Assembly: GCA_036001065.1 (NCBI GenBank)
Contig: DASYUQ010000077.1
Span: 12,299 to 76,298 of the forward strand
Reading direction: 5' to 3'
DNA from: Candidatus Methylomirabilota bacterium
GTDB taxonomy: Bacteria; Methylomirabilota; Methylomirabilia; Rokubacteriales; CSP1-6
Length of the DNA: 64,000 nt
Shown here: positions 1,163 to 32,520 of the stretch, piece by piece
Layout of the letters: each line of letters opens with the position of its first letter
How positions within the stretch are numbered: position 1 is the stretch's first letter
The notes under the pieces: generated by a model
Told to the model about the DNA's origin: nothing
The model's input: only the letters and a program-made list of their open reading frames with translations
The model's database searches: none
Position numbers and translations under genes: made by a program

Positions 1163-3040
1163 CTATCCAAGGAAATACCGCCTCGGATCGAAGAGCCGGA
1201 TGAGCCGCAGCTCGTCCGGCGTCGGGGGATCGAAGCGCCGCAGGGCCGGGGCGACCTTCAGCTCCCAGCCGCACGCCTCCCGCGCAGCCCGGACGGCTTC
1301 CGCCTCGGGCGGCCCCGCCAGGACGCCCGTCAGGATCAGCTCGGAGCTCTCGTCGGGCTTCTCGTACACGCCCCGGTCCGACACGACGGTCGTGACGCGC
1401 GTGCCCGGCGCCGTGATGTACGGCGCCTTGTCGACGAAGCGCTCCCGGCTCTGGGCCAGCGTCACGACGACCTCCCGCGCCGACGAGGCGATGTCGTTGG
1501 CTCCGCCCGAGCCCGTGATGTACAGGGTCCCCGGCACGATGGTCGAGTTGATGTTGCCGTGCTTGTCGATCTGCCCCGCCGCCAGCGAGCCGAGGCAGCG
1601 GTTCTCGCTCCCGCCCATGAAGATGCCCATAACGTGGAAGATGTCGGTGAGCATCTTGGACGACGGGAAGTTGCGGAACGAGAAGACGAACGGCTCGGCC
1701 GGGCGCGGCAGATAGCCGACCATCCCCGTCTCGGCCATCAGCTCCACGTCGACGCCGGCGGCCTTCAGCTCGTAGGCGCTGAGCCAGGCGGCCAGGTTCG
1801 AGTTGCCCACGCCGGCCAGGAAGGCGCGATAGCCCCGCGCCCTCACCTTCTCGCCGAGCAGGCGCGCCGCGGCCACCACCATCATCTCCGCTGCGGTGAA
1901 GCCGCCGTCGGCGGGAATGGCGGGCGCGAGCATCTCCAGCTCCCAGACCCAGGCGTCGGTGTGGGCGCGGCCCTTGACCTCCATCAGCCGCTGGTAGCCC
2001 AGCCGGGCGACGTAGGCCCCCTGGTCCGGCACCTCCAGCATCCACTCCTTGATCCAGGCCTCCGCCGTCTCGCGCTTCCGGAAGGCGCGGCGCAGCGTGA
2101 GGATGAAGTCGAGGTCCTCCGCGTATCCCTCCAGCTCGGCGACGTTCATGCCGTACATCCCGGCGGGATGGGCCCCGAACGGCGCCTCCACCACGGCCGC
2201 GACGTACTGTCCCGGCAGTCGCACCAACGGGGCGTGGCGGCGGATGAACTCGGTCGAGACGACCTTCTCGACGCTGACGATGGCGCCCCCGCGGGCGGCC
2301 ATCGCCGCGTAGAAGTTCTCGTTGAGGGGCGCGGCGGCGAGGACGTTGCCGGCGCGGTCGGCGGCCCAGGCGTGAAACAGCGCCACATCCGGCTTGAGCG
2401 AGCGCACGAACCCGACCCTTCGAGCGCCGGCTCCGCCGGCACAACCCTCCGATGGGGAGGTTCGGAGGGGGTCGTGAGGCCCTCTCTGACTAGGGATCTC
2501 GGAGGGGGCCGTAACGTCCGCCCCCTCCGAAAAAAACGGGTCGGGGGCGGCGAGGAAATCGCCATCGCGCGCGTTGTCCTCCTCCATCGAGGAGCCGAGC
2601 AGCGAGCGCGTGGGCATGAAGGGCACGCCCAGCGCGCCCCCGATCAGCCTGAGCGGCATCGTCAGCATCGACCAGTTCTGGACGGCCACCTGGCCGCCGA
2701 GCACGGCGCGGCCGACCAGCGGCTGGGGCGTCGGATAAGGATAGCCCTCGCCGATGAAGGTCGTGACGAGGCGCTCGACGAGGCCGCCCACGACGAACGC
2801 CGTCCAGGGCGAGCCGAACCCGGTCATCGCCAGCGTCCAGCCCGGCCTCCGGCCCCACCACTGGCGGATCACCTCTCGCACCAGCGCGTTCGGGCGGCCG
2901 TGGGCGGCGCCCAGGTAGATGGTCTGGCGCGGCGCGATCAGGCGCCGCACCGCCTCCTCCAGGGTCGTCACCTTGTCCGGCCCTTCGGTGGGCGGCAGCG
3001 CGAGGCGTCGCCCGATCAGCTCCGCGTAGTCCGAGCGCAT
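1163..3040 (-). CDS. Family I CoA-transferase, fused alpha-like + beta-like subunits (GctAB/AtoDA-type), with an about 39-aa in-frame repeat-derived insertion
   Basis: 625-aa ORF. The C-terminal half carries the beta-subunit catalytic-glutamate motif (GGSENRCLGSLAAGQIDKHGNINSTIV). The N-terminal half resembles the alpha subunit. Residues about 168-207 (PFFSEGADVTAPSEIPSQRGPHDPLRTSPSEGCAGGAGARRVG) are encoded by repeat copy A. Confidence 0.65.
   Translation of the reverse strand: MRSDYAELIGRRLALPPTEGPDKVTTLEEAVRRLIAPRQTIYLGAAHGRPNALVREVIRQWWGRRPGWTLAMTGFGSPWTAFVVGGLVERLVTTFIGEGYPYPTPQPLVGRAVLGGQVAVQNWSMLTMPLRLIGGALGVPFMPTRSLLGSSMEEDNARDGDFLAAPDPFFSEGADVTAPSEIPSQRGPHDPLRTSPSEGCAGGAGARRVGFVRSLKPDVALFHAWAADRAGNVLAAAPLNENFYAAMAARGGAIVSVEKVVSTEFIRRHAPLVRLPGQYVAAVVEAPFGAHPAGMYGMNVAELEGYAEDLDFILTLRRAFRKRETAEAWIKEWMLEVPDQGAYVARLGYQRLMEVKGRAHTDAWVWELEMLAPAIPADGGFTAAEMMVVAAARLLGEKVRARGYRAFLAGVGNSNLAAWLSAYELKAAGVDVELMAETGMVGYLPRPAEPFVFSFRNFPSSKMLTDIFHVMGIFMGGSENRCLGSLAAGQIDKHGNINSTIVPGTLYITGSGGANDIASSAREVVVTLAQSRERFVDKAPYITAPGTRVTTVVSDRGVYEKPDESSELILTGVLAGPPEAEAVRAAREACGWELKVAPALRRFDPPTPDELRLIRLFDPRRYFLG
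2420..2537. repeat. GC-rich palindromic repeat element, copy A (forward orientation), inside the CoA-transferase CDS in-frame
   Basis: Sequence: ttcgagcgccggctccgccggc...gatggggaggttcggagggggtcgtgaggccctctctgactagggatctcggagggggccgtaacgtccgccccctccgaaaaaaa. It is near-identical to copy B (32414-32520) and shares 5' and 3' modules with copies C, D, E and F. Internal hairpins: GCCGGCtccGCCGGC and TTCGGAGGGGG...CCCCCTCCGAA. Confidence 0.65.
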
Positions 3041-3046
3041 CTTTCC

Positions 3047-3394
3047 CTAGCGTGGTGAGAAGATGCGGGCCTTGATCCGACCCGGCACCCAGCCGGCCAG
3101 CAGGTGGGCCGCCCGCGCCAGCCGCTCCAGCGACGCGGCGCTCCCCGGCCAGTACTTGAGCAGCAGGGCGCGGTCGACGTAGTTGAGGATCCCGTCGAGG
3201 ATGATCGCCGCCAGCAGGAGATCGTCGAGGTAGCCCAGGAACGGGATGAAGTCGGGGATCAGGTCGATGGGACTGGCCAGGTAGACCGCCGCGGCGGCCA
3301 GGGCGATCTTGGCCGGGCGCGGCAGTACCGGGTCGCCCACGAGCCGGGCGATCAGCCGTACGAGGTCGGGCAGCGCGCGCAGCAGCTCCTTCAC
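3047..3394 (-). CDS. DUF1232 (YkvA-like) small membrane protein
   Basis: 115 aa with the DUF1232 signature PIDLIPDFIPFLGYLDDLLL and hydrophobic segments. Its start ATG overlaps the upstream gene's stop (ATGA). Confidence 0.55.
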   Translation of the reverse strand: MKELLRALPDLVRLIARLVGDPVLPRPAKIALAAAAVYLASPIDLIPDFIPFLGYLDDLLLAAIILDGILNYVDRALLLKYWPGSAASLERLARAAHLLAGWVPGRIKARIFSPR

Positions 3395-5376
3395 TCCAGG
3401 CTCTCCGCCACCAGCTCGCTCACATCTTTGACTTGAAGTCGCTCCTCGGCCCCCTTGACCTTACGGCCCAGGTCGATCATCGCCAGGCAGAAGGGACAGG
3501 CGGTGCCCACCATGGTCGCCTCGGTCTCCAGGGCCTCCTCCACCCGGATGATGTTGACGCGCTTCCGGGACTTCACCTCCATCCACATGTGGCCCCCGCC
3601 CCCGCCGCAGCAGAGCCCGCGTTCGCGGTTGCGCGGCATCTCGATGACCCGGAGACCGGGAAGCGCGCGGGCCACGGCCCGGGGCGCCTCCATGATGCCG
3701 TTGTAGCGTCCGAGATAGCAGGAGTCGTGGAAGGCCAGCGTCGCGTCGAGGGCCTTTTTCGGCTTGATCCGGCCGGCGGCGAGCAGCTCGTTGATGACCA
3801 CCGAGTGGTGGACCACCTCGTAGGTGCCGCCGAACTGGGGGAACTCGTTCTTGATGGTGTTGAAGCAGTGGGGGCAGTGGGTGAGGACCTTCCGGAAGCG
3901 GTACCGGCCCAGCGCCTCGACGTTCTCCTGCTGCACGGTCTGGTACAGGTACTCCTCGCCCAGCCGGCGCGCGACCTCGCCGTGGCAGCGCTCCTCCGGC
4001 ATCACCGCGAAGGACACGCCGGCCGCTTTGAGGATCCTCACCACGGACCGCGCGATCGACTGGTTGCGCTTGTCGTAGGAGGCGGAGCAGCCGACCCAGT
4101 AGAGGTACTCGACCTCTTTGCCCGGCTCCATGAGCGGCACGTCGAGCCCGTGCGCCCAGGCCAGCCGCTCGCTGGCCGGCAGCCCCCAGGGGTTGCCCGC
4201 CCGCTGGATGTTCTGCAGCGATTGCGGCGCCGTCGACGGGAGAGCGCCCTCCGACAGCGCCAGATACCGGCGGAGGTCGATGATGGTGTCGACGATGTCG
4301 ATGAAGGCCGGGCACTCCTGCACGCAGGCCATGCAGGTCGTGCACGCCCACAGCTCCTCGGCCTTGATGAGTTGGCCGTGGATCGGTCCGGGCAGCTCGC
4401 CGTGCAGGTGCCGCTTGAGCTTCACGATGATCTGCTTGGGGGATAGCGCCGTGCCCGCCATGTAGGCGGGGCAGACCGCCTGACAGCGCCCGCACTCCAC
4501 GCACGCGTCGAAGTCTAGCCGTCGCTTCCACGAGAACTCCTCGAGCTTCGAGATGCCGAACGACTCGGCCTCCTCGATGTTCTCGATCTTGGGGATCTCG
4601 CCGCGGGGGCCGAGCTTCGAGAAGAAGATGTTCAGCGGCGTGGTCAGGAGGTGGACGAAGTAGGAGTAGGGGATGACGGCGACGAAGGCCAGGGAGATCG
4701 CCGCGTGGAACAGCCAGGTCCCCAGATGGAGCGCACGCAACGCGCCCTCCGACATCCCGGCCGCCAGCATCGTCCGCCCCAGCGCCCAGCCCACCGGCGA
4801 CCACGGCGCCCACGCCGGCTCGACGACGGCCAGGCGGCAGGCCTCCATGATGAAGCCCGTGAGGTTGATCACGAAGAGCAGGGCCAGCACGCCGGCGAAG
4901 CGCGCCGTGGGATCGAGGCGATCCGGGCGCGCGACGAAGCGCCGCCCCACCGCCATGCCGAGCCCGATGACGAAGAAGAGCCCGAAGAGGTCGAGCACCG
5001 TCTCGTAGAAGAGGTAGAACGGCCCCTGGAGCAGCTTCACGTCGAAGAGCGGCAGCGTGATGTCCCAGTCGATGGTGGCCAGCACGGTGCCCATGAAAAG
5101 GGCGAGGAAGCCCCAGAATATGATCGCGTGCATGACCCCCGGATAGGCCTGGGAGAGTGTGCGGGCCTGGCCGAGCGCGTGCACCAGCACGAGCTTGACG
5201 CGTTCGGGAACCCGGTCGAATCGGTCCTGGGGGCGGCCGGCGCGCCACAGCCGGACGCGCTGCCACATACCGTAGACGAAGACGGCGACGGCCGCGAGGG
5301 CGCCGGCGTAGAGCGCGATCTGAGCCCAGGCCGGAACATTCCAGAAGGTGTCGCGGAACGGAATCTGTCCGGTCAT
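3391..5376 (-). CDS. Membrane-anchored iron-sulfur oxidoreductase: NarI/DsrM-like polytopic N-terminal domain + two 4Fe-4S ferredoxin motifs + two CCG (HdrD/DsrK/GlpC-like) cysteine-rich domains
   Basis: True start is ATG at 5376 (MTGQIPFRDTFWN...), overlapping the meaB stop as ATGA. The track ORF 3391..5925 carries a spurious 183-aa Arg/Gly-rich N-terminal extension. About 5-6 predicted TM helices are followed by CVECGRCQAVCP and CTTCMACVQECP, then the CCG motifs WVGCSASYD and LCCGGGGGHMW...CPFC. The architecture matches DsrMK/HmeCD-type and the membrane FeS oxidoreductases (DUF224) that accompany EtfAB in syntrophs. Confidence 0.65.
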   Translation of the reverse strand: MTGQIPFRDTFWNVPAWAQIALYAGALAAVAVFVYGMWQRVRLWRAGRPQDRFDRVPERVKLVLVHALGQARTLSQAYPGVMHAIIFWGFLALFMGTVLATIDWDITLPLFDVKLLQGPFYLFYETVLDLFGLFFVIGLGMAVGRRFVARPDRLDPTARFAGVLALLFVINLTGFIMEACRLAVVEPAWAPWSPVGWALGRTMLAAGMSEGALRALHLGTWLFHAAISLAFVAVIPYSYFVHLLTTPLNIFFSKLGPRGEIPKIENIEEAESFGISKLEEFSWKRRLDFDACVECGRCQAVCPAYMAGTALSPKQIIVKLKRHLHGELPGPIHGQLIKAEELWACTTCMACVQECPAFIDIVDTIIDLRRYLALSEGALPSTAPQSLQNIQRAGNPWGLPASERLAWAHGLDVPLMEPGKEVEYLYWVGCSASYDKRNQSIARSVVRILKAAGVSFAVMPEERCHGEVARRLGEEYLYQTVQQENVEALGRYRFRKVLTHCPHCFNTIKNEFPQFGGTYEVVHHSVVINELLAAGRIKPKKALDATLAFHDSCYLGRYNGIMEAPRAVARALPGLRVIEMPRNRERGLCCGGGGGHMWMEVKSRKRVNIIRVEEALETEATMVGTACPFCLAMIDLGRKVKGAEERLQVKDVSELVAESLE

Positions 5377-6368
5377 GAGTGTCCCAACGATAGCACGGCG
5401 AGAACGACCTCCGCGGCGGCGTACGGGTCGAGCTGCCCGTCGGCGACCCGATCGAACGTCTGGGCCAGGTCGCCCGAGCGCAGCATCCGCTCCACGCTGT
5501 CCCTGAACTCCTCCACCAGGAGACTCTTGAACTCGTCGCGCCGCCGGGCCCGGCGCCGTTCGGCCAGCGCGCCCGCTCCCTCCAGAGCTGCGCGGTGGCC
5601 GACGACCGTGTCGAGCAGCTCGGCCATCCCGCCGTTGTTCTGGGCCTCCGTCGCCAGCACGGGGATCTCCCAGTCGACGTCGCGCGGCGCGGTGGGGCTG
5701 GTGGAGGCCAGGTGGGCGGCGAACTTCAGCTCCGCCATCAGGGCGGGGGCGCCGGTGCGGTCGGCCTTGTTGACGACGAAGACGTCGGCCGCCTCCATGA
5801 GGCCCGCCTTCATCGTCTGGATGGCGTCGCCCGACTCCGGCACCAGGATGACCACCGTCGTGTCGGCGAGCTTCATGATGTCGAGCTCGGTCTGGCCCAC
5901 GCCCACGGTCTCGATGAGGATCCACGGAAACCCGAACGCGGCCAGGAGCTTGATGACGTCGCCGGTGGCGCGGGCCAGCCCGCCGAAGGCGCCGCGCGTC
6001 GCCATGCTCCGGATGAAGACGCCGGGGTCGAGCGCGTGGGCCTGCATGCGGATGCGATCGCCCAGCACCGCGCCCCCCGTGAACGGACTCGACGGATCCA
6101 CGGCGACGACGCCGACGGTCTGCTCGCGCGCGCGGAGCAGCGCGGTCAGCCGGTCCACGACTGTCGATTTACCGGCGCCGGGTGGCCCCGTCACGCCCAC
6201 GACGTAGGCGCCCTGCGCCCGCGGATGGATCGCGCGCATGATGGCGGGCACCGCCTCCCTGCGGTTCTCGACGTGGGTGATGAGACGCGCCAGCGCCAGC
6301 CGGTCGCCGGCCAGCATGCGCTCGACGAGCGCGTCGATTTTCTGCGGGCGGGTCTTCGGATCAGGCAT
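5373..6368 (-). CDS. meaB: MeaB/ArgK-family G-protein (B12-dependent acyl-CoA mutase metallochaperone)
   Basis: 331 aa with P-loop GVTGPPGAGKST, VETVGVGQ and NKAD. This is typical MeaB. It is the first gene of a 5-gene minus-strand operon. Confidence 0.8.
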   Translation of the reverse strand: MPDPKTRPQKIDALVERMLAGDRLALARLITHVENRREAVPAIMRAIHPRAQGAYVVGVTGPPGAGKSTVVDRLTALLRAREQTVGVVAVDPSSPFTGGAVLGDRIRMQAHALDPGVFIRSMATRGAFGGLARATGDVIKLLAAFGFPWILIETVGVGQTELDIMKLADTTVVILVPESGDAIQTMKAGLMEAADVFVVNKADRTGAPALMAELKFAAHLASTSPTAPRDVDWEIPVLATEAQNNGGMAELLDTVVGHRAALEGAGALAERRRARRRDEFKSLLVEEFRDSVERMLRSGDLAQTFDRVADGQLDPYAAAEVVLAVLSLGHS

Positions 6369-6384
6369 CGGCCGACGGGTCCCC

Positions 6385-6410
6385 GGAATTGTAGCACTCT
6401 GCTAGTATGG
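6385..6410. promoter_or_regulatory. AT-rich divergent promoter island: extended -10 (TGcTACAAT) on the minus strand for meaB, and TAGTAT -10-like on the plus strand for the small membrane ORF
   Basis: The plus strand reads ggaattgtagcactctgctagtatgg. This is the only AT-rich patch in a GC-rich region. Minus-strand gTGcTACAAT lies about 20 nt upstream of the meaB ATG (6368). No convincing -35 is present. Confidence 0.3.
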
Positions 6411-6417
6411 CCGGCTG

Positions 6418-6789
6418 ATGCGGGGCCTCCCCATGCTCGTCGCGCTCGCCGCCGCCGAACAGCCCCTCACGCTGCAGCGGGTATGGCTCGACCGCCTGGC
6501 GATCATCATTCCGGCGACCATGGCGACGCGGTGGCTGCTCCTCGCCGACCTCGCCTGCCTGATCGCGCTGGGGCTGGGGATGCGCCGGCCGCTGCTCGGC
6601 GTGGTCCTCACCCTTGGCGGAGGATTCCTTGTCCTCAACGGCCTCGGCATGGCGCTCACGGATTTCTACCTGGGACTCGCCCTCTTTCACTTCGTCGTCG
6701 GCGTCACCGTGGTCCTGTTCGCGCGCCGCGCGCGCTGGCTGGGCGCGGCGGCGCTGGGACTGGCGCTCGTCCTCGGCGCCCTCACCTGA
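6418..6789 (+). CDS. Small hydrophobic membrane protein (hypothetical)
   Basis: 123 aa with about 4 predicted TM helices (LVALAAA..., LLLADLACLIALGL, VVLTLGGGFLVLNGLGMAL, LALFHFVVGVTVVLF). Plus-strand codon usage is GC3-rich. It is convergent with the cytochrome gene, and an alternative start is at 6433. Confidence 0.4.
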   Translation: MRGLPMLVALAAAEQPLTLQRVWLDRLAIIIPATMATRWLLLADLACLIALGLGMRRPLLGVVLTLGGGFLVLNGLGMALTDFYLGLALFHFVVGVTVVLFARRARWLGAAALGLALVLGALT

Positions 6790-6797
6790 TGACGGCC

Positions 6798-7355
6798 TTA
6801 CATCTCCTTGTGGCACTCCAGGCAGATGGGGACGACGAGCGTCCTGGAGATAAACCGGTTGGTGGCGTCGCTGTCCGTCGTGTGCGTCGTGTGACAGCGC
6901 ACGCAAGCCACCCTCACCGTGTCGTGCTCGCGGATGGCATGGTAGGAGGTGCCTCCCCGGCCTTCGGTCGCCTCCTCGGCCTCGAACTCCGCACCGGGGT
7001 CGACGGCCCGCGCCGGGCTCCCCGCCGCCTCGCCGTCGGCGCGCGACACGCGCAGAATCGGCGTGTGGCACTGGCGGCAGTCGGCGTCGCGCAGCGGCAG
7101 CCGCATGTGCGTCGGCTCCTGATAGGCGCCGGCCAGGAACTTCAGCGTGTCGAACCCCGCCACGGCCCAGACCGTCAAGCGCATCCCGGAATCGGCGCCG
7201 CCGTGACAGGCGATGCACCCGACCGCCGCGTCCTGGCGGTGATGCTGCCCGGCCAGATCGCCAGGCATGGCCGCGGTCAGACCCCCGAACTTCTCATCGT
7301 GCAGGTGGCAGGAGACGCAGAAGCGGTTGTCGCGCTCCTTGGCGGCGAGCGCCAC
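6798..7355 (-). CDS. NapC/NirT/NrfH-family membrane-anchored multiheme cytochrome c (5 CxxCH); likely N-terminal extension to about 7436
   Basis: The ORF from GTG 7355 contains CVSCH, CIACH, CRQCH, CVRCH and CLECH. In-frame upstream codons (no stop back to 7445) encode a TM anchor, IARSFGRSLALWAAGGAGALLLGSLFLVALAAKERDNRFCVSCH. This is the NrfH/NapC arrangement (TM helix, then first heme). The only start-like codon there is ATC at 7436, 8 nt after a GAGAGGAGGA Shine-Dalgarno. Confidence 0.6.
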   Translation of the reverse strand: MALAAKERDNRFCVSCHLHDEKFGGLTAAMPGDLAGQHHRQDAAVGCIACHGGADSGMRLTVWAVAGFDTLKFLAGAYQEPTHMRLPLRDADCRQCHTPILRVSRADGEAAGSPARAVDPGAEFEAEEATEGRGGTSYHAIREHDTVRVACVRCHTTHTTDSDATNRFISRTLVVPICLECHKEM

Positions 7356-7461
7356 CAGGAAGAGCGAACCGAGAAGCAGGGCTCCCGCCCCGCCCGCCGC
7401 CCAGAGTGCGAGAGACCGTCCGAACGACCGGGCGATGGCGGGAGTCCTCCTCTCGCGGGTG

Positions 7462-8268: not shown

Positions 8269-8326
8269 CAGGTTTCCCCCGTGACAGCGAAGTGCACTGC
8301 AGTCCAACCCGACACTGATAAACCGA

Positions 8327-9509: not shown

Positions 9510-9517
9510 AGCCGGCG

Positions 9518-10231: not shown

Positions 10232-10284
10232 TTCCGGCCTTTCAAGCTGTCCGGCCAAGCCCCGCCTCGTCTGTCACCAGGTCT

Positions 10285-10300
10285 TGGCACCCCTCTTGCG
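10285..10300 (+). promoter_or_regulatory. Sigma-54 (RpoN) -24/-12 promoter
   Basis: TGGCACccctcTTGCG matches TGGCAC-N5-TTGCW exactly. It lies 47 nt upstream of the ATG at 10347. Confidence 0.5.
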
Positions 10301-10346
10301 TAGTCACCGTGAGGCGAAACTTCTGGCATCGCCCGAGAGGTGCCTA

Positions 10347-11099: not shown

Positions 11100-11196
11100 A
11101 TTCCTCGGAGGGGGGCTTCGCCCCCCTTCCGAAACCTCCCCCCAGGATCCATTGCGCGGGCTAAGCCCGCGCTCGAGCCGGCCGCCCCCAGAAACT
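11100..11196. repeat. GC-rich palindromic repeat element, diverged copy F (reverse orientation), between convergent genes
   Basis: cggaggggggcttcgccccccttccgaaacctccccccaggatccattgcgcgggctaagcccgcgctcgag parallels copies D and E (cggagggggcctcggcggccccctccgaggcctcccccagga..gatggcgccggcggagccggcgctcgaa). The terminal hairpin is kept by compensatory changes (GCGCGGGCtaaGCCCGCGC versus GCGCCGGCggaGCCGGCGC). Confidence 0.5.
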
Positions 11197-13017: not shown

Positions 13018-13334
13018 GAGTGGTTTCTCCCCGGTTGAAGAGGCCAGAGAATTTCGCAGATGCGCCAACGCTATCACCCGCCTCCGCGGCTTGTCAACGT
13101 ACGCCTGCCCCCTTCTCCCCTAAATATGGTGTTCACGACCCGTCCGGAACCCCCGTATGTTGGATTTGGGGCTTGACAGGATTTCCGGGCCGGCTCTAGC
13201 ATGCCGGTGACGCGCGTCATGCCGCAAGGGAGGTGAGCCGCGCCCTCGAGGCGACCGGCCCTCTCGGCCTTGCGTTCCGGCAGGGCCGCACCCTCTGATG
13301 ATACTGAGTGGGGCGACCCCCCTCAGACCCTGAG

Positions 13335-13392: not shown

Positions 13393-13403
13393 CGACGGTC
13401 GAG

Positions 13404-18164: not shown

Positions 18165-18225
18165 TACAGGCTCGCCTCGGCCGCGGGGGCCCCAGCCCCC
18201 GGCCGTCCTGCGGCTCGCACGGCCA

Positions 18226-18822
18226 TCAGGCGAGCTCCCGGACCAGCGCCCGCGCGCGCTCCAGCTCCTCGGGCGTATTGACGTTCATGAACACGACGGC
18301 GGGGTCGACGTACCGCGCGATCTCCGCCTCATCGATCACGACGACGCGCACCTTGTCGAAGAACCCCACGATCTTCAGCCGCCCGGCCAGCAACCGCTCC
18401 TCCATGTGCGGTAGGCAGCTCTTCTGGTAGGCGGCGTGCATCGTCTCGTACTGATCGCCCACGCGCGGGATCACGACGTCCCCGAGCGGAGCGTGCTCGA
18501 CGACGAGACGGACGACCTCGCGGCGCAGGAACGGCATGTCACAGGCCACGGTGAACGCCGCCCCGCCGGAGGCCGCCTTGAGGCCCGAGTAGATGCCGCC
18601 CAGGGAGCCGTGATCCGGATAGACGTCGGGCACCATGGGCAGGCCCAGGAAGGCATAGAGCTCCGGCATGTTCGTGACGATCAGCAGGTCGTCCACGGCG
18701 CCCGCGAGCACCCCGGCCACGCGCTCGATGATCCGTCGGCCGCCCAGGTCCATCAGCGCCTTGGGTTGCCCGCCCATGCGGGTGCTCTTGCCACCGGCCT
18801 GGATCACGCCCGTGATTTTCAT
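18226..18822 (-). CDS. mobA: Molybdenum cofactor guanylyltransferase
   Basis: Start ATG 18822 (MKITGVIQAGGKSTRMGGQPKAL...). The first 29 aa of the track ORF are a read-through of repeat copy D. Confidence 0.7.
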   Translation of the reverse strand: MKITGVIQAGGKSTRMGGQPKALMDLGGRRIIERVAGVLAGAVDDLLIVTNMPELYAFLGLPMVPDVYPDHGSLGGIYSGLKAASGGAAFTVACDMPFLRREVVRLVVEHAPLGDVVIPRVGDQYETMHAAYQKSCLPHMEERLLAGRLKIVGFFDKVRVVVIDEAEIARYVDPAVVFMNVNTPEELERARALVRELA

Positions 18823-18896
18823 TCGAAGGGGGCCTCGGCGGCCCCCTCCGAGGCCTCCCCCAGGATCGATGGCGCCGGCAAAGCCGACGCTCGAAC
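18823..18896. repeat. GC-rich palindromic repeat element, copy D (reverse orientation), immediately 5' of mobA
   Basis: cgaagggggcctcggcggccccctccgaggcctcccccaggatcgatggcgccggcaaagccgacgctcgaa is about 90% identical to copy E over about 70 bp. Confidence 0.6.
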
Positions 18897-22229: not shown

Positions 22230-22234
22230 CGCGG

Positions 22235-23920
22235 TCAGTGGCGGAAGTGACGGATGCCGGTGAAGACCATCGCCACCCCGCGCTCGTCGGCCGCCGCGAT
22301 GACCTCCTGATCCCGGAGCGAGCCGCCCGGCTGGATGACGGCCGTGACCCCGGCCTGAGCCACGACGTCGAGACCGTCGCGGAACGGGAAGAACGCGTCG
22401 GAGGCGCAGACGCTGCCTTCGGTGCCGAGCCCGGCCTCGCGCGCCCGCATGACGGCCAGGCGCGCGGAGTCCAGGCGATTCATCTGCCCGGCCCCGACGC
22501 CGACCACCTGATCGCCTGTGGTCAGCACGATGGCGTTCGATTTGACGTGCTTGGCCACCCGCCAGGCGAAGCCGAGCGCGGCCATCTCGTCGGGAGTGGG
22601 CGCGCGCCGGGTGACCGTCTTGAGGGTCTTCTCATCGAGGTCGACCGCGTCCGCCGCCTGCACCAGCAGACCACCGAGCACGCTCCGGTACTCGACGAGC
22701 CGCGGGAGCCGTTCGCACGGTACCTGGAGCACACGGCACTTCTTCTTCGTCCGCCTGAGCTCCTCCAGCGCCTCGGGAACGAAGGCGGGCGCGAAGAGGA
22801 TCTCGACGAAGATGCCGGCGAGCTCCCGGACGACGGCCGGGTCGAAGGCGCGGTTGACGCCGACGATCCCGCCGTAGATCGATACCGGATCCGACGCTTT
22901 CGCCTTGGCCATGGCGGCGCCGGCGGTGGCGGCGACCGCGGCACCGCACGGGTTGGTGTGCTTGACGACGACGGCCGCCGGCTCGGCGAACTCGAGCAAC
23001 AGCCCCAGGGCCGCCGAGAGGTCGAGCAGATTGTTGTAACCGAGCTCGGGCCCGTGCAGCTGCCGCATGGCGCCGAGCCCGAAGGGGAACCCGCCGAGGA
23101 GGCGGTAGAACGCCGCCGCCTGGTGGGGGTTCTCGCCGTACCTCAGACCGAGCGCCCGCTCGGCCTCGAGCCGCAGCCGCTCCGGAAACTGCTCCGTTCG
23201 AGCGCCGGCTTCGCCGGCGCAATCCGTCCTGGGGGAGGTCTCGGAGGGGACCGTCGCGCCCTCCGGGCGCGCCTGTGGAGTCGCCCCCTCCGACCGGGAT
23301 GGGAGGCGAAGCCCCCCTCCGAGGGAGGCGGCCCCCTCCGAAGAAAAATGAGCGGCGATCGCCGCGTCGTATTCGGCCGTCCGCCGGAACGCTTGCTGGG
23401 CCAGACGAGCGCGCGTCTCGTCGCTAAGCGCGCCGCCGCTGGCCCGCAGCTCTCCCAGGACCTCCGCGTACTGCGAGGGATCGGTGACGACGGCCACGCT
23501 CGCGTGGTTCTTGGCGGCGGCGCGAATCATGGCCGGACCCCCGATGTCGATCTGCTCGATCGCCTCGGCGCGCGTGACGCCGGGCCGCGCCACCGTGGCC
23601 TCGAACGGGTAGAGCGCCACGACGACGAGGTCGATCGGCGGGATCCCGTGCTGCTCGAGCGCGGCCGCATGCTCGGGGGAGTCCCGGCGGGCCAGGATGC
23701 CTCCGTGAATCTTGGGATGGAGCGTCTTGACACGACCGTCGAGCATCTCGGGAAACCCGGTGACGTCGGCGACCTCGCGCACCGGCACCCCCGAGTCCCG
23801 GAGCAGCCGAGCCGTCCCGCCCGTCGAGAGGAGCTCCACCCCCAGCTCCCGGAGGGCTCTGGCCAGCTCGACCACACCGGTCTTGTCGTGAACGCTCACG
23901 AGCGCACGCCGGACCTTCAT
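22235..23920 (-). CDS. purH: Bifunctional AICAR transformylase / IMP cyclohydrolase, with repeat-derived about 50-aa insertion in the interdomain linker
   Basis: MGS-like N-domain (VRRALVSVHDKTG...) and AICARFT C-domain. The linker segment SSEGAASLGGGLRLPSRSEGATPQARPEGATVPSETSPRTDCAGEAGARTEQ is encoded by repeat copy C. Confidence 0.85.
   Translation of the reverse strand: MKVRRALVSVHDKTGVVELARALRELGVELLSTGGTARLLRDSGVPVREVADVTGFPEMLDGRVKTLHPKIHGGILARRDSPEHAAALEQHGIPPIDLVVVALYPFEATVARPGVTRAEAIEQIDIGGPAMIRAAAKNHASVAVVTDPSQYAEVLGELRASGGALSDETRARLAQQAFRRTAEYDAAIAAHFSSEGAASLGGGLRLPSRSEGATPQARPEGATVPSETSPRTDCAGEAGARTEQFPERLRLEAERALGLRYGENPHQAAAFYRLLGGFPFGLGAMRQLHGPELGYNNLLDLSAALGLLLEFAEPAAVVVKHTNPCGAAVAATAGAAMAKAKASDPVSIYGGIVGVNRAFDPAVVRELAGIFVEILFAPAFVPEALEELRRTKKKCRVLQVPCERLPRLVEYRSVLGGLLVQAADAVDLDEKTLKTVTRRAPTPDEMAALGFAWRVAKHVKSNAIVLTTGDQVVGVGAGQMNRLDSARLAVMRAREAGLGTEGSVCASDAFFPFRDGLDVVAQAGVTAVIQPGGSLRDQEVIAAADERGVAMVFTGIRHFRH
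23199..23349. repeat. GC-rich palindromic repeat element, long copy C (forward orientation), in-frame inside purH
   Basis: The 5' module ttcgagcgccggcttcgccggcgcaatccgtcctgggggaggtctcggagggga matches the reverse complement of copy E's 3' end (A and C share the core TTCGAGCGCCGGCTYCGCCGGC and GGGGAGG-YCGGAGGGG). The 3' module ggccccctccgaagaaaaa matches copies A and B. Confidence 0.6.
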
Positions 23921-23924
23921 TCGA

Positions 23925-25834: not shown

Positions 25835-26862
25835 GCCACCAGCTCCACGCCGCGCTCGCCGGCCACGATCTCGCCCAGCCGGTGCACCGTCTCGCCGGCG
25901 ACGGCGAGCGCCGCTCCGGCGGCCTCGGCGTGCGGCGCCGGCACGACGACCACGTAGCCGATCCCCATGTTGAAGGTCCTGAACATCTCCGCGTCGGCCA
26001 CCCGGCCGGCCCGCTGCAGCGTCTCGAACACGGCCGGCACCTGCCACGACTTGCGGTGGATCAGGGCGCGACACCCCTCGGGCAGCACGCGGGGAACGTT
26101 CCCGACGATCCCGCCGCCCGTGATGTGCGCCATCGCTCCCACCTCCATCCGCTCCAGCAAGGCGAGGATCGGGCGCACGTAGATCCGCGTCGGCTCCAGC
26201 AGCTCGGCGGCGACGGCGCGGCCCGTTCCGGGCAGCTCGGCGTCGATCGACAGCTTGAGGACGTCGAAGACGATCCGGCGCGCCAAAGAGTAGCCGTTCG
26301 AGTGGAGGCCGGACGATGCCAACCCGAGCAGGATGTCTCCCGGTCGCACGCGAGCGCCGTCGACGATGCGGCTCTGCTCCACGACGCCCACGGCGAACCC
26401 GGCCAAATCGTATTCTCCCGGCCCGTAGAGGTCGGGCAGCTCGGCGGTCTCCCCCCCGATCAGCGCGCAGCCCGCCCGCCGGCACCCCTCGACCACCCCG
26501 CGCACGATCGTCTCCACCCGCGCGGGGTCCAGGCGCGCGATGCCGATGTAATCCAGAAAGTAGAGGGGCTCGGCGCCGTGGACGAGAAGGTCGTTGACGC
26601 CCATGGCCACCAGGTCGATGCCCACGGTCTGGTGGCGGTCGGCCATGAAGGCCACTTTGAGCTTCGTGCCCACGCCGTCCGTCGACGACACCAGCACCGG
26701 CTCGCGGAACTTCTGGGGCACCCTGACGAACCCCGCGAAGGCCCCGATGCCGCCGATGACCTCCGGCCGGAAGGTGGTACGGGCCAGCGGCGCGATGCGG
26801 CGAACCGCCTCGTCGCCGGCCTCGATGTCGACGCCGGCGTCACGGTAGGTCGGTCGATCCAT
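25831..26862 (-). CDS. purM: Phosphoribosylformylglycinamidine cyclo-ligase (AIR synthetase)
   Basis: Start ATG 26862 (MDRPTYRDAGVDIEAGDEAV...). The first 45 aa of the track ORF are read-through of repeat copy E. Confidence 0.85.
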   Translation of the reverse strand: MDRPTYRDAGVDIEAGDEAVRRIAPLARTTFRPEVIGGIGAFAGFVRVPQKFREPVLVSSTDGVGTKLKVAFMADRHQTVGIDLVAMGVNDLLVHGAEPLYFLDYIGIARLDPARVETIVRGVVEGCRRAGCALIGGETAELPDLYGPGEYDLAGFAVGVVEQSRIVDGARVRPGDILLGLASSGLHSNGYSLARRIVFDVLKLSIDAELPGTGRAVAAELLEPTRIYVRPILALLERMEVGAMAHITGGGIVGNVPRVLPEGCRALIHRKSWQVPAVFETLQRAGRVADAEMFRTFNMGIGYVVVVPAPHAEAAGAALAVAGETVHRLGEIVAGERGVELVA

Positions 26863-26877
26863 CGGCGGCGCTAGCTC

Positions 26878-26952
26878 AGTCGGAGGGGGCCTCGGCGGCC
26901 CCCTCCGAGGCCTCCCCCAGGAAGGGATGGCGCCGGCGGAGCCGGCGCTCGA
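26878..26952. repeat. GC-rich palindromic repeat element, copy E (reverse orientation), in the purF-purM intergenic spacer
   Basis: agtcggagggggcctcggcggccccctccgaggcctcccccaggaagggatggcgccggcggagccggcgctcgaa. Its 3' 22 nt are the exact reverse complement of copy A's 5' 22 nt (ttcgagcgccggctccgccggc). Confidence 0.6.
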
Positions 26953-27000
26953 AACAGCGAGCAGTGGCCGGAGTAAGCTGGCGCCATTCGCCAACAACCG

Positions 27001-28413
27001 CTAGTCGTCGAACAGCCTGAGCTGCGGGCTCGGCTCGGGCGCGATCCCCACCCGGTAATTGCCGGTGAAGCAGGCGTGGCAGAAGTGGCTGGGGTCCGCG
27101 CCGGTGGCCTTCAGCATGCCCTCGAGCGAGAGGTATCCGAGCGAATCGGCGCCGACATACCGGCGGATCTCTTCGACGTTGTGACTGGCGCCGATCAGCT
27201 CCCTCCGGGTCGGGGTGTCGATGCCGTAGTAGCAGGGCCACTTGATCGGCGGCGACGAGATCCGCATGTGGACCTCGCGGGCGCCGGCGTTCCGGATCAT
27301 CCTCACGATCTTGCGGCTGGTGGTGCCGCGGACGATCGAGTCGTCGACGACCACGACCCGCCGCCCCTCCAGCATCTCCCGCATCGGGTTGAGCTTCACC
27401 TTGACGCCGAAGTGGCGGATGCCCTGCTTGGGCTCGATGAACGTGCGGCCCACGTAGTGGTTGCGGATGAGGCCCATCTCGTAGCGCACCCCCGACTGCT
27501 CGGAGAAGCCGAGCGCCGCGCTGGTGCCCGAGTCCGGCACCGGGATGACGATGTCGGCCTCCACCGGGTGCTCGCGAGCCAGCTCCCGCCCGAGCGCCTT
27601 GCGGACGGTGTGCACGTTGCGGCCCCAGAGGACGGAGTCGGGCCGCGCGAAGTAAACGTACTCGAAGACGCAGTGCAGGCGCTCCCCGGCGGGGGCGTAG
27701 CGGCGAGATTGCACGCCGGCCTCCGAGATGACGACGATCTCCCCCGGCTCGACCTCGCGCTCGTACTTCGCCTCGATGAGGTCGAGCGCGCACGTCTCCG
27801 AGGCGACCACCCACGAGTCGGTGAGCCTCCCCAGTCCCAGCGGCCGGAAGCCATTCGGGTCGCGCACGGCGTACATGGCGTCCGGCGTGAGGATCAGCAG
27901 CGAGTATGCCCCCGTCACCTGCCGGAGCGCATGCGGGAGTTGCTCCGCCAGCGTCCCGGCGGGGGCGCGCGCGAGGAGGTGGAGGATGACCTCGGTGTCG
28001 GAGTTGGACTGGAAGATGGCGCCCTCCCGCTCCATCTCCCTCCGCAGCGCCTCGGCGTTGGTCAGGTTGCCGTTGTGGGCGATGGCGATCGGGCCGCGGG
28101 CGGTGTTGGCCGTGATGGGCTGGGCGTTGCGGAGCTTCGAGGAGCCGGCCGTCGAGTAGCGGACGTGACCGATGGCGCGGTGGCCGGGAAGCCGGCGCAG
28201 GCGCTCGGGGCCGAAGACGTCGGCGACCCATCCCATCGCCTTCTCGGTGTGGAAGCTCTGCCCGTCGGTCGCGGCGATCCCCGCGGACTCCTGCCCGCGG
28301 TGCTGGAGCGCGTAGAGACCGAGGTAGGCGACGTTGGCGGCCTCCGGATGATTCCAGATGCCGAACACCCCACACTCGTCGTGGAACTTGTCGTCACGCC
28401 AGGTGACGCTCAA
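27001..28413 (-). CDS. purF: Amidophosphoribosyltransferase
   Basis: Short propeptide, then CGVFGIW (Ntn Cys), a PRTase domain, and C-terminal Fe-S cysteines. Confidence 0.85.
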
Positions 28414-30616
28414 AGCCCCTCCTCCAAGCCTGTTCGAGGCTCTCGATCGCGGCGTCGATCACCGTCGTCGACCCGCAGCGAACTCTCAGCCGCTCGCTCC
28501 CCGTGGTCCCGATCCAGCGCCACGGAATGGCCGACTCCGCCATCAGCCCCTCGAACTCCAGGACCCGCGCCGGGTCGACGGAGACGACCACCCGCGACGG
28601 TCCTTCGCCGAAGAGCATGAGATCGGCCCGCGCTCCCTCGGGCAGCGTCACGCTACATCCCACCGGCTCCCGGCCGGTGACGCAGCCCTCCGCCAGCGCC
28701 ACCGCCAGGCCGCCCTCGGCGCAATCGTGCGCGGAGAGCACGAGCCCGGCGCCGATCGCCGCCTGGACGGCCGACTGTACCCGCCGCTCCCGCCCCAGGT
28801 CCAGCGGCGCCAGCGGCCCGGCGAGGCGGCGGTGGAGCATCCACAGGTACTCGCTTCCCCCCAGGCTGACGGCGTCGGGACCCAGCAGGGCGAGACGGTG
28901 GCCCGCCCCCTTGAACCACTGCGTGACCGCCCGCCCCGCCTCCGCGAGCACGCCGACCACGCCCACGACGGGCGTGGGGAGAATGGCCTGCCCGTTGGTT
29001 TCATTGTAGAAGGAAACGTTGCCGCCCACTACCGGCAGATCGAGGGCGCGGCAGGCCTCGGCGAGGCCGTCGATCGCCTCGGCGAACTGCCAGAGGATCT
29101 CGGGCCGCTCGGGCGAGCCGAAATTCAGGCAGTCCGTGACGCCCAGCGGTCGACCACCCGCGCAGGAGACGTTCCGCGCCGCCTCGCAGACCGCCATGGC
29201 CGCTCCGCGACGGGGATCGAGAAACACTTGCCGGCCGTTGCCGTCGGTCGAGATCGCCAGGGCGCGGCGCGTGCCCTTCACTCTCAGCACCGCCGCGTCG
29301 GAGCCCGGCAGCACCAGGGTGTTGATCCCGACCTGCTGGTCGTACTGGCGGAACGCCCACTCCTTGGAGCCGATGGTCGGCGACCCCAGGACCGCCAGCA
29401 GCGCCTCCTCGTAATCCGCCGGCTCCGGCAGGGCCAGGGGATCGAAGGCCCGTAGCTCGGCCAGCCACGGGGGCGGCGCGGTCGGCTTCTCGTAGCGAGG
29501 CGCCTCGGCCAGCGCCTTCACTGGCACGCGGGCGGCGATCTCCCCGTGGTGGCGCACGGTCAGGTTGCCGTCGTCGGTGACCCGTCCGATCTCGACGGCG
29601 TCCAGCTCCCACTTGGCGAAGACCCGCCGCACCTCCTCCTCGCGGCCGCGCGCCACGACCAGCAGCATGCGCTCCTGCGACTCCGAAAGAAGGATCTCGT
29701 AGGGGGTCATCTCGATCTCGCGCTGGGGCACGCGCGACAGCTCCACCTCCATGCCGGTGCCGGCCCGCGCCGGCATCTCCGAGGTGCAGCAGGCCAGCCC
29801 GGCCGCGCCCATGTCCTGGATCCCCACCACGGCGCCGGTCTGCATGAGCTCCAGACAAGCCTCGAGGAGCAGCTTCTCCGTGAAGGGATCGCCCACCTGC
29901 ACCGTCGGGCGGCGCTCCTGGGCACGCTCGTCGAACGTCGACGAGGCCATCGTGGCGCCGTGGATGCCGTCGCGCCCCGTCTTGTTGCCGACGTAGAACA
30001 CGGGATTCCCCACCCCCTCGGCGCGGGCGCGGAAGATCCGGTCGGCCCGGACGAGCCCCACGCACATCACGTTGACGAGGGGGTTGCCCGCATACTCGGG
30101 GGCGAAGGCGATCTCGCCGCCGACGGTGGGGCAGCCGAAGCAGTTGCCGTACCAACTGATGCCGGACACGACCCCCTCGATCAGCCGGCGCGTCCGGGGG
30201 TCGTCCGGCTCGCCGAAGCGGAGGGAATCGAGGATGGCGATGGGGCGGGCGCCCATCGTAAAGATGTCCCTCAGGATTCCGCCCACCCCGGTGGCGGCGC
30301 CCTGGAAGGGCTCGATGAACGAGGGGTGATTGTGGCTCTCGATCTTGAACACGACGGCCCAGCCGTCGCCGATGTCGACGACACCGGCGTTCTCGCCGGG
30401 CCCCTGCAGCACATGCGGCCCCGCTTGGGGCAGCCGGGCCAGGAACACGCGCGAGTGCTTGTAGGCACAGTGCTCCGACCAGAGGGCGGAGAACAGCCCC
30501 AGTTCGGTGTAGGTGGGCTCGCGACCGAGCCGCTCGATGATCCGGTCGTATTCGTCGGCAGTGAGGCCCAGTTCGCGCGCGAGGTCCGGTGTCGCCTTCG
30601 GCTCCGACCCCGTCAA
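28394..30616 (-). CDS. purL: Phosphoribosylformylglycinamidine synthase subunit PurL (FGAM synthase II)
   Basis: 740 aa with [12 protein letters not shown]. It overlaps purF by 20 nt. Confidence 0.85.
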
Positions 30617-30630
30617 TCCGCCTCCAGCGG

Positions 30631-31344
30631 TTACCGCTTCAAGAAGCCGCCGTCCTCGACGAGGCTGCCGAGGAGGGACTGGAAGATCAGCAGCCCGTCG
30701 GTGCTACCCATCGCCGGCTCGGCCGCCCGCTCGGGATGCGGCATGAGTCCCAGCACGGTCCCCTCCTCGTTGACGACGCCGGCGATGCTCTCCAGGGAGC
30801 CGTTGGGATTGGCCGCCCGCGTGACCTGGCCTTCGGCCGTCGCGTAGCGGAACACGATCTGGCCGTTCTTCCTGAGCTTCGCCAGCGCCCCGGCGTCGGC
30901 ATAGTACTTGCCCTCGCCGTGGGAAATCGGCATCGTCAACACCTGCCCCACGCGCAGACCCCGAGTGAAGGGCGTGTCCACGTTCTCGACCACGAGATGC
31001 GTCTGCTGGCAGCGATACTGCAGGCACTCGTTGCGCATGAGCGCGCCGGGCAGGAGGCCGGCCTCGCACAGGATCTGAAACCCGTTGCAGGAGGCGAGCA
31101 CATGCCCGCCGCGCGCGACGAAGTCACCCAGCGCCTCCACCACCGGCGAGCGGCCGGCCACGGCGCCGGCTCTCAAGTAATCGCCGTAGGAGAAGCCGCC
31201 CGGCAGGATGACGCAGTCGAAGTCATCGAGGTTCCGGTCGCGGTGCCAGATGTACTTGACCGGCTGCCGCAGGACTTCCGAGACCACGTAGTGGAAGTCG
31301 CAGTCGCTCCAAGTCCCCGGGAACACGACCACGCCGAATCTCAT
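30631..31344 (-). CDS. purQ: Phosphoribosylformylglycinamidine synthase glutaminase subunit
   Basis: [16 protein letters not shown]..., a class I glutamine amidotransferase. Confidence 0.85.
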
Positions 31345-31414
31345 GGAGTCGATTCTCCTCTCGAGGCAGGACTATCTTACCGCTGCCAGGCGGCACCGAG
31401 CAAGCGAAGCGCGC

Positions 31415-31648
31415 TCACTCGATCGTGTACTCCTCGAGCAGGGGGTTGGCGAGGAGCCGGCGGCACATCTCGTCGGCGCGGGCGCGGGCCTGCGCGGCCG
31501 TGGGAGCCTCCAGCTCGACCTCGATCACCTTGCCCACCCGCAGGTCGGCCACGTCGGTGAAGCCGAGGCCCATCAACGCGCGCTTGACGGCCGCGCCCTG
31601 AACGTCGAGGATGCCCGGCTTGAGCCGGACGAGCACGCGCACTTTCAT
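31415..31648 (-). CDS. purS: Phosphoribosylformylglycinamidine synthase subunit PurS
   Basis: Start ATG 31648 (MKVRVLVRLKPGILDVQG...), about 77 aa. ATGA overlap with the purC stop. Confidence 0.75.
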   Translation of the reverse strand: MKVRVLVRLKPGILDVQGAAVKRALMGLGFTDVADLRVGKVIEVELEAPTAAQARARADEMCRRLLANPLLEEYTIE

Positions 31649-32388
31649 GTCCGCGGCGCGCCGCCTTCGACGAGACGCCGGAACACTTCCTGGTAGGCGT
31701 CCTCCACGCCCCCCAGATCCTGGCGGAAGCGGTCCTTGTCCAGCTTGGCGCGGGTCCGGGCGTCCCACAGGCGGCAGGTGTCGGGTGAGATTTCGTCGCC
31801 CAGGTAGAGCCGGCCGCGGGCACGCCCGAACTCGAGCTTGAAGTCGACCAGCAGGAGCCCCCGGCGCGCCATGTGCGGCCGGAGTACGCGATTGATCCGG
31901 AGGGCCATCCGCCGGAGCCAGGCCAGCTCCCGGGGTGTGGCCAGCCCCAGCAGCCGCACGTGGTCGTCGGTGATCATGGGATCACCGAGCGGATCCGACT
32001 TGTAGTAGAGCTCCACGATCGGCTGCTTGATCGGAGTCCCTTCCTCGAACCCGGTGCGCTTGGCCAGGCTGCCGGCCACGATGTTGCGGACGATCGTCTC
32101 GATGCGGATGATCTCGAGCCGCCGGCAGAGCATCTCGCGGTCGGAGAGGGTGGCCAGATAGTGGGTGGGCACCCCCGCCCGCTCGAGCCGCTGGAACAGC
32201 GCCGCCGACATCCGGTTGTTCACCACGCCCTTGCCGACGATGGTCCCGCGCTTGAGCGCGTTGAAGGCGGTGGCGTCGTCCTTGAAGTACTGGATGATCA
32301 GATCCGGCCGGCTGGTCGCGTAGACGATCTTCGCCTTGCCTTCGTAGAGCTTCTCGCCCTGCTCGACCTCCGGAATCGCCCTCTTCAT
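31645..32388 (-). CDS. purC: Phosphoribosylaminoimidazole-succinocarboxamide synthase
   Basis: Start ATG 32388 (MKRAIPEVEQGEKLYEGKAKIVY...). Confidence 0.85.
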   Translation of the reverse strand: MKRAIPEVEQGEKLYEGKAKIVYATSRPDLIIQYFKDDATAFNALKRGTIVGKGVVNNRMSAALFQRLERAGVPTHYLATLSDREMLCRRLEIIRIETIVRNIVAGSLAKRTGFEEGTPIKQPIVELYYKSDPLGDPMITDDHVRLLGLATPRELAWLRRMALRINRVLRPHMARRGLLLVDFKLEFGRARGRLYLGDEISPDTCRLWDARTRAKLDKDRFRQDLGGVEDAYQEVFRRLVEGGAPRT

Positions 32389-32413
32389 CGCTCTACCCTC
32401 TATTTCGCGCTTT

Positions 32414-32520
32414 TCGAGCGGCGGCTTTGCCGCCGCGATCCTATGGGGTGGTTCGGAGGGGGCCGCGAGGCCCCCTCTGACTAGGGATCCCGGAGGGGGC
32501 GGCGCCCCCCTCCGACAAAA
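32414..32520. repeat. GC-rich palindromic repeat element, copy B (forward orientation), overlapping the purB 3' end
   Basis: ttcgagcggcggctttgccgccgcgatcctatggggtggttcggagggggccgcgaggccccctctgactagggatcccggagggggcggcgcccccctccgacaaaa. It is near-identical to copy A. The 5' hairpin has compensatory changes (GCGGCGGCtttGCCGCCGC versus GCCGGCtccGCCGGC). Confidence 0.65.

Follow-up and report, generated by a model that had tools for sequence, protein, structure and literature searches.

A probable family of interspersed, modular palindromic repeats with paired hairpin variants in Rokubacteria

Among the repeats described in bacteria, those closest to the element reported here are the repetitive extragenic palindromic sequences (REPs) and the Rickettsia palindromic elements (RPEs). 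The REPIN, two copies of one REP arranged as an inverted doublet that folds into a long hairpin, is a replicative unit, and compensatory changes are reported to be common in REPIN hairpins (PMC3116915). RPEs are known for their in-frame insertion in protein-coding genes (PMC10969869). Here we describe a hairpin-forming repeat that resembles both. It was encountered in a 64,000-nucleotide (nt) stretch of a Candidatus Methylomirabilota bacterium of the order Rokubacteriales (assembly GCA_036001065.1, contig DASYUQ010000077.1, positions 12,299 to 76,298), referred to below as the window.

We propose, with a probability of about 0.6, that these repeats are an interspersed, modular family of palindromic DNA elements of the Rokubacteria (phylum Methylomirabilota), similar in kind to REPs and bacterial interspersed mosaic elements (BIMEs) and to RPEs. 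In this proposal the hairpins would have to fold on just one of the element's strands, most probably as single-stranded DNA (ssDNA). By comparison with REP/REPIN elements, the ends of IS200/IS605 insertion sequences (ISs) and RPEs, a trans-acting protein probably reads the hairpins and copies, inserts or converts the elements. Only well-paired variants would propagate, leaving a population made of paired alleles. The element is without stop codons in at least two antisense frames, which would allow insertions in permissive loops and linkers to survive and then to be inherited. No description of repeat elements of Rokubacteria was found in the literature searched.

Architecture and pairing of the repeat unit

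The unit is about 75 nt long and has a constant order: a TTCGAG motif, hairpin 1, a linker, the GGGGGAGG box and hairpin 2. Hairpin 1 is an 8 bp stem with the consensus GCGxyGGC-TTY-GCCy'x'CGC, and the linker between it and the box is variable (8–15 nt). Hairpin 2 exists in two forms, type I being a 12 bp stem with the consensus TCGGAGGGGGCC-GTCGA-GGCCCCCTCCGA and type II a bulged version of it; GGAGG and CCTCC motifs are contained in this hairpin. The right flank consists of about 8 nt of AT-rich sequence, often with the neighbour's stop codon within it. Both hairpins are predicted when either strand is folded as DNA, with z-scores of −2.6 to −4.5, and RNAalifold, given no input structure, also finds hairpin 1 and the core of hairpin 2. 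Some copies carry optional extra modules, either added hairpin-2 modules or a third hairpin. A third hairpin, GCGCGCC-nnnn-GGCGCGC, extends the unit to a long form of about 107 nt (10 metagenome copies), and compensated variants of this hairpin, GCGCGGC/GCCGCGC and ACGCGCC/GGCGCGT, also occur. This long form (loci L156, L176, L204, L222, L151, L226, L195, L157, L229 and L109) is confined to metagenome copies with a type II hairpin 2 and has a conserved context, CAGGGAGGAGC...GACGACCGTCGGAAGG.

Copies were collected in two scans, and all copy counts below are among the matches listed by these two scans. The first covered one genome per species and used only the outer arms of hairpin 2 as an exact anchor, giving at least 120 loci. 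The second covered metagenomes and was anchored exactly on the outer part of hairpin 1 and the G-box, which left the central hairpin-1 pairs and the whole of hairpin 2 free; it matched at least 120 loci, mostly from soil. Pooled, the scans gave at least 157 full copies at no fewer than 150 distinct sites.

Stem complementarity, which the sequence-only reading of the window had taken to be kept while the sequence changes, persists in this larger sample, and so does the covariation. In an alignment of 139 copies, controlled by 500 column shuffles and by sliding the pairing partners by 1–3 columns, 99.4% of hairpin-1 cells are paired. The observed structure exceeds 500 of 500 shuffles on every measure, and pairing falls to 44–52% when the partners are slid; these covariation statistics count alignment cells and not evolutionary events. 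Six of the eight pairs of hairpin 1 scarcely change in sequence (over 98% invariant) and are never A-T. Only the two central pairs flip, always between C-G and G-C: at pair 9-22, 120 copies have CG and 17 have GC, at pair 10-21 the numbers are 93 and 41, and intermediates are nearly absent at both. A pair in hairpin 2 (90-105) is likewise CG in 91 copies and GC in 37.

Read as central dinucleotides, the hairpin-1 alleles are CC/GG (79 copies), CG/CG (47) and GC/GC (18), so that 144 of 150 copies are complementary; three of the six that are not have G.T wobbles. The genome set, which was fished without hairpin 1, has complementary centres in 40 of 41 copies and a wobble in the other. The double-flipped allele, GG/CC, was not seen at all, against about five copies expected by arithmetic on the pair counts if the two flips were independent. 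Its stem would hold a G5/C5 run, which could pair wrongly with hairpin 2.

The stems are about 99% conserved, in contrast to the loops and the linker, which vary at around half of their positions, and compensated variants are found in all three hairpin modules. The residual mismatches, read on the element's own strand, are G.T in 48 cases and A.C in 16 (binomial p = 8e-5). A folded single strand can accommodate G.T but not A.C, the corresponding mismatch on the complementary strand, and this asymmetry therefore indicates that one particular strand must fold. Taken together, the conservation of the stems, the rarity of intermediates, the agreement of the three modules and the 3:1 bias towards G.T indicate that the stems are under a pairing constraint.

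Exchange of variants and distribution

The covariation reduces to three hairpin-1 alleles and two hairpin-2 types. All three alleles co-occur in single genomes (that of the window and MNEF01), and they combine freely with the other modules: each has been found with both hairpin-2 types and with all the common loops, and these counts give no significant association (chi-square of about 5.6 with 2 degrees of freedom, p ~0.06). Alleles also change at orthologous sites. They differ in 4 of 10 orthologous copy pairs whose flanks are 81–88% identical, and the copy in purH is CC in the window and CG in a syntenic contig, L242, where the hairpin-2 type differs as well. A quick neighbour-joining tree of 121 PurH orthologues requires the allele to have switched at least nine times and a recognisable element to have been gained or lost at least 24 times, with many partial remnants.

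At such flank divergence two specific, independent transversions would, we infer, be some 100 times rarer than the switches observed. As the switches outpace paired point mutations, whole variants must be exchanged, whether one copy replaces another through gene conversion or a new copy inserts where one already sits. Real as it is, the covariation is that of a small set of propagating, always-paired variants. The earlier claim that the stems reflect selection on structure and not drift accordingly stands as far as a constraint on pairing is concerned; it does not extend to many independent compensatory mutations.

The window and L242 are 98–99% identical at the purB-purC, purF-purM and Sua5 loci and about 85% identical across purH (window 22235–23920; L242 10001–11626). 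The low identity of purH, together with its different element variant, suggests that purH was replaced via recombination with a divergent lineage. At the end of the L242 contig (14880–15224), a unit of about 123 nt comprising the 3′ end of Sua5 and the element is repeated in tandem at least twice; it is present once in the window, and the duplication may be genuine or an error made in assembling a repeat. A more distant syntenic relative, L241, has zero copies across 21.5 kb of the same purine-gene cluster. Comparison with its empty sites does not define exact insertion boundaries, L241 being too divergent and its genes overlapping at the site of copy D (described below).

Full-length copies occur in at least 26 species-level assemblies from the hairpin-2-anchored scan. 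All but two of the 26 are labelled Rokuibacteriota, Methylomirabilota, Methylomirabilia or unclassified ('uncultured bacterium'), and the remaining matches of that scan, in Streptomyces and others, are chance palindromes without the rest of the element. Full copies lie at L025 4527–4599 and 7232–7311, on a 319-kb contig labelled 'uncultured Alphaproteobacteria', and at L079 3093–3166, on a 5.8-kb contig labelled 'Acidobacteria bacterium AA35'. These labels reflect either mis-binning or mislabelling, or the presence of the element outside the Rokubacteria.

Copies in the window and their host genes

The window has a GC content of about 70%, and its minus strand carries most of the genes. Repeat finding, direct reading and nhmmer with a hidden Markov model (HMM) built from the copies agree on six full copies, designated A to F, all within the first 32.5 kb; the second half of the window (32520–64000) gave no copy or fragment of the element with nhmmer. 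The positions and letters that the sequence-only reading had given for these copies and their stems are correct, as read on the plus strand. Its inner palindrome, CGGAGGGGGCC...GGCCCCCTCCG, is intact in copy E and nearly so in D, A and B; F has a bulged variant instead.

Copy E (26880–26953, minus strand), in sense orientation between purF and purM, is the canonical unit. It consists of TTCGAG, a hairpin 1 of the CC/GG allele with an 8 bp stem and a 3-nt loop (GCGCCGGC-tcc-GCCGGCGC, the loop being 'gga' on the plus strand), the variable linker, CTGGGGGAGG, and a perfect type I hairpin 2 of 12 bp with a 5-nt loop (TCGGAGGGGGCC-gccga-GGCCCCCTCCGA). Copy D (18823–18895, minus strand) is also in sense orientation and lies between the genes for a Sua5/YrdC-family protein and a MobA-like NTP-transferase, its end abutting the ATG at 18822; its hairpin 1 (18872–18890) is CC/GG with one T.G wobble, and its hairpin 2 (18823–18851) is of type I. 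Convergent genes flank copy F (11105–11177, minus strand), which carries the CG/CG allele, GCGCGGGC-tta-GCCCGCGC (loop 'taa' on the plus strand), and a type II hairpin 2 with a bulged A, CGGAAGGGGGGC-gaa-GCCCCCCTCCG.

The three remaining copies are on the plus strand, antisense to genes, and have extra modules. Copy A (2419–2530) begins with a CC/GG hairpin 1 at 2424–2442, GCCGGC-tcc-GCCGGC, with one outer C/A mismatch, followed by a degenerate hairpin 2 (2462–2489), the CTAGGGAT spacer and a second hairpin-2 module (2499–2530); it lies in frame within the coding sequence of a CoA-transferase gene. Copy C (23197–23341) lies in frame within the interdomain linker of purH, and its CC/GG hairpin 1 (23202–23220, GCGCCGGC-ttc-GCCGGCGC) is followed by three partly decayed hairpin-2 modules. 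Copy B (32413–32515), between purB and purC, has the GC/GC allele at 32418–32436 (GCGGCGGC-ttt-GCCGCCGC), a hairpin 2 at 32453–32480, the CTAGGGAT spacer and a second hairpin-2 module at 32491–32515; the purB frame enters it by about 27 codons.

The predicted proteins of these host genes carry the copies as additional peptide (SSEGASTAPSETSPR is an example from predicted PurH). The CoA-transferase gene (1163–3040, minus strand) encodes 625 amino acids against a baseline of 593 in orthologues, copy A adding about 32 residues in a surface loop inside the CoA-transferase domain; the encoded sequence matches, at 100% identity, a protein named 'CoA-transferase [Methylomirabilota bacterium]'. Its orthologues mostly read DDPF-GGG-RVGF at this loop, and about 15 carry varied variants of the element at exactly the same place. 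In purH (22235–23920, minus strand), copy C lengthens the stretch between the IMP cyclohydrolase and AICAR transformylase domains by about 40 residues, and Mycobacterium tuberculosis PurH (PDB 3zzm) aligns to residues 3–192 and 245–561 of the window protein. Many of 120 PurH homologues with 73–88% identity contain an antisense translation of the element, such as SSEGASTAPSETSPRIDGAGKAGARTE, in two frames, and others have element remnants or nothing at the linker. The in-frame copies in purH and in the CoA-transferase gene, together with orthologues which lack the element, carry it or keep remnants of it at the same loop, argue that insertion occurs at the level of DNA. In purB (32441–33808, minus strand), residue 428 of 455 is the last of the ADSL_C domain, and copy B encodes the final 27 or so residues.

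Different, repetitive-looking peptides (GGPLRLPPTPPSSRVDRA.GSI..., RLDRGAKRGVWGEAEGVPPA) occupy the PurH linkers of P0037, P0041, P0043, P0046, P0112, P0115 and P0119, and of P0062, P0069 and P0093, which suggests that further, unrelated GC-rich elements entered the same linker. The window also contains a second, unrelated repeat family, GCTCGCCTCGG.CGC.GGGGCCCC...CCCCCGGCCGTCCTGCGGCTCGCACG.CCATC, at 18170–18227 and 43893–43975; it is partly duplicated at the latter position, and both sites are at gene ends.

Gene calls were based on GC content at third codon positions (GC3). The 60 intergenic copies with both neighbours called comprise 21 in tandem contexts and sense orientation, 23 in tandem contexts and antisense orientation, 16 between convergent genes and none between divergent genes. 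When one-sided calls are included, 53 copies are sense and 67 antisense to genes. A minority lie inside genes, some of them antisense within coding sequence. Copies within the conserved nusG-rplK-rplA ribosomal protein region (L141 290–1926, and L219) indicate that highly expressed core operons tolerate the element.

Alternative explanations and relation to known systems

Several results weigh against the proposed element family. The sequence-only reading had suggested that the hairpins might be recognised by an IS200/IS605-like TnpA or a REP-associated tyrosine transposase (RAYT), and a survey of the window and of 1.5 Mb of DNA around about 146 element loci (11109 six-frame ORFs) turned up neither of these, nor any other Y1/RAYT-like open reading frame (ORF). 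It was made by phmmer with E. coli RayT and IS200 TnpA queries, by an HMM of 114 RAYTs (--max) and by a scan for the HUH...Y-x-NP motif. The RayT query is 99% identical to a database cluster whose neighbour cluster is named RayT; the best E-value of the HMM was 3.8, and the HMM is solely enterobacterial and so weak for distant RAYTs. If each genome had a RAYT flanked by elements, one or two such loci would be expected among the 146 or so. This negative is mild evidence against the classical arrangement, limited by the breadth of the HMM and by short contigs. Nor was a transposase present among the recurrent neighbour families (677 GC3-supported ORFs, clustered and scanned with Pfam). These neighbours, and the ORFs between inverted copies, encode ABC transporters, dehydrogenases, ribosomal proteins, NusG, CobQ and similar proteins. 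No recent movement was seen, the window and its 98–99% identical relative L242 sharing 4 of 4 comparable copies; many orthologous copies are old, and their upkeep could be by gene conversion and not by transposition. The sample is, moreover, incomplete and enriched for well-preserved copies, given the exact anchors and lower-bound counts, and the excess of G.T over A.C is not significant in the antisense copies on their own (17:9).

The same searches bear on the possibility that the repeats are a classical REP/REPIN family, moved by a single-copy RAYT encoded elsewhere in the genome which recognises the hairpins on ssDNA. Short GC-rich hairpins after genes and between convergent genes, the lack of both target duplications and terminal inverted repeats, compensated stem changes as in REPINs and a strand-specific mismatch bias would all be expected of such a family. 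RAYT genes are, however, normally flanked by REPs and none was found near the sampled loci, most copies are single two-hairpin units and not inverted doublets, and some are intragenic. A GTAG-like 5′ tetranucleotide is required in E. coli REPs and is absent from the element. We regard this explanation as unlikely. Selection for RNA pairing would also explain covariation, were the repeat to function as RNA, be it by stabilising mRNA, by attenuation or as a hairpin that modulates translation by sequestering the GGAGG that resembles a Shine–Dalgarno (SD) sequence. Copy D abuts a start codon, hairpin 2 contains both GGAGG and CCTCC, and the preference for G.T (G.U) is strongest in copies sense to genes (19:3). 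It is nevertheless on the same strand of the element in antisense copies, where selection on mRNA predicts the reverse, and an excess in both orientations indicates that the bias follows the element and not the mRNA. Orientation is random with respect to genes, also in tandem contexts (21 against 23), and some copies lie in frame within coding regions. Rfam gave no match at the gathering score in the whole window, and with copy E at E-values up to 10 only generic hairpins below threshold (at most 18 bits against cut-offs of at least 35). Neither hairpin is followed by a T-run in either orientation, which also rules out an intrinsic terminator. An RNA structure acting on the gene strand, one of the options in the sequence-only reading, is thus unlikely, given the 53 sense and 67 antisense copies and those antisense inside coding sequence, and we consider a functional RNA quite doubtful overall.

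It has also to be considered that no structural selection operates, the palindromes being kept by quasi-palindrome template switching and gene conversion between copies. Allele switches at orthologous sites are indeed too frequent for paired point mutations and are often accompanied by changes elsewhere in the element, and intermediates are nearly absent. Yet such a process does not lead one to expect that just two of eight hairpin-1 pairs flip, and only between C-G and G-C, with the other six more than 98% invariant and free of A-T, or that the GG/CC allele is missing where about five copies were expected. A 48:16 asymmetry between G.T and A.C is not expected of strand-symmetric mutation, and conversion spreads variants without explaining why pairing is universally good; this account is accordingly improbable. 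Least probable by far is a miniature inverted-repeat transposable element (MITE) derived from a DDE-type IS. The repeat is small, non-coding, interspersed and multicopy, and some MITEs insert in frame. The ends of the consensus are not inverted repeats, however: it begins TTCGAGCG... and ends ...CCCTCCGA, and the reverse complement of the 3′ end, TCGGAGGG, is unlike TTCGAGCG. No target-site duplication was found with k = 3–8 at offsets of 0–5 on the left and 0–8 on the right, counts being no higher than in permuted flanks, and no related IS or transposase was found nearby.

Two further identities were set aside. The copies are single and dispersed several kb apart, which rules out a CRISPR or other tandem array. 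Integron attC sites form arrays in which all sites point the same way, each following a cassette ORF, with an integrase nearby, and their structure is conserved while their sequence is variable; the present copies lie among housekeeping genes, in both orientations, and are strongly conserved in sequence.

A more speculative view, which we hold to be possible and rather unlikely, is that the element is a long-lived, order-wide hairpin cassette and not a parasite dependent on a RAYT or IS. It would be kept by an unrecognised mechanism that reads one strand, would repeatedly occupy and re-occupy permissive sites including the interdomain linker of PurH, an essential enzyme, and would have been co-opted there through its hairpins and SD-like GGAGG or through its peptide rich in Ser, Gly, Ala and Pro, for instance by pausing translation or by serving as a flexible linker.

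For the study of Rokubacteria, which are abundant in soil and uncultured, the element family proposed here has some practical consequences. It explains odd extensions and inserts in annotated PurH, PurB and CoA-transferase proteins, flags likely assembly break points in metagenome bins, and gives a lineage marker. It also offers a wealth of natural examples of hairpin pairing preserved through very few kinds of G/C pair swap, with a mismatch bias on one strand. Because the same protein loops hold variants or remnants across species, it is a useful system for the persistence of palindromic repeats and the tolerance of in-frame insertions.

With REPs, BIMEs and REPINs the element shares short, GC-rich, imperfect palindromes present in many copies after genes or between convergent genes, and also a mosaic of few stem variants, compensated stems, the lack of target duplications and vertical persistence. 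It differs in being composed of two unlike hairpins in a fixed order with a G-rich box, and not of an inverted doublet of one REP; head-to-head double units occur at a few loci only (L163 and L236). It differs further in that no RAYT was found near the 146 or so element loci, in that copies also lie inside genes, and in that many species of an order-level group, and not one species or genus, share its conserved sequence.

RPEs are palindromic repeats of about 100–150 bp without a known transposase. Like them, the present element is inserted in frame in unrelated housekeeping genes and inherited as extra peptide, here in purH, the CoA-transferase gene and the tail of PurB. The analogy goes no further than this, since sequence and host lineage are unrelated, the hosts here being free-living soil bacteria of 70% GC. 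In addition, most copies of the present element are intergenic, and the same protein loop holds different variants and remnants in different lineages.

The ends of IS200/IS605 elements and the gene-less derivatives of these, the palindrome-associated transposable elements (PATEs), resemble it in having a hairpin near each end, with no terminal inverted repeats and no target duplication, and in a strand-specific structural constraint of the kind expected of an ssDNA 'top strand'. The two hairpins of the present element are, in contrast, unrelated in sequence, and the sampled loci yielded no TnpA. Within 30 kb of monotonic cumulative GC skew, the window has three copies in plus and three in minus orientation, which argues against a strict lagging-strand-template bias of the IS200/IS605 kind.

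Compensated repeat hairpins are already known from REPINs, and in-frame palindromic insertions from RPEs, and no new class of mechanism is revealed here. Since the element is not an inverted doublet, was not accompanied by a RAYT at the sampled loci, has neither the ends nor the duplications of a MITE and is unrelated in sequence to RPEs, we place it outside every named family, as a new, undescribed family within the general class of bacterial interspersed palindromic repeats.

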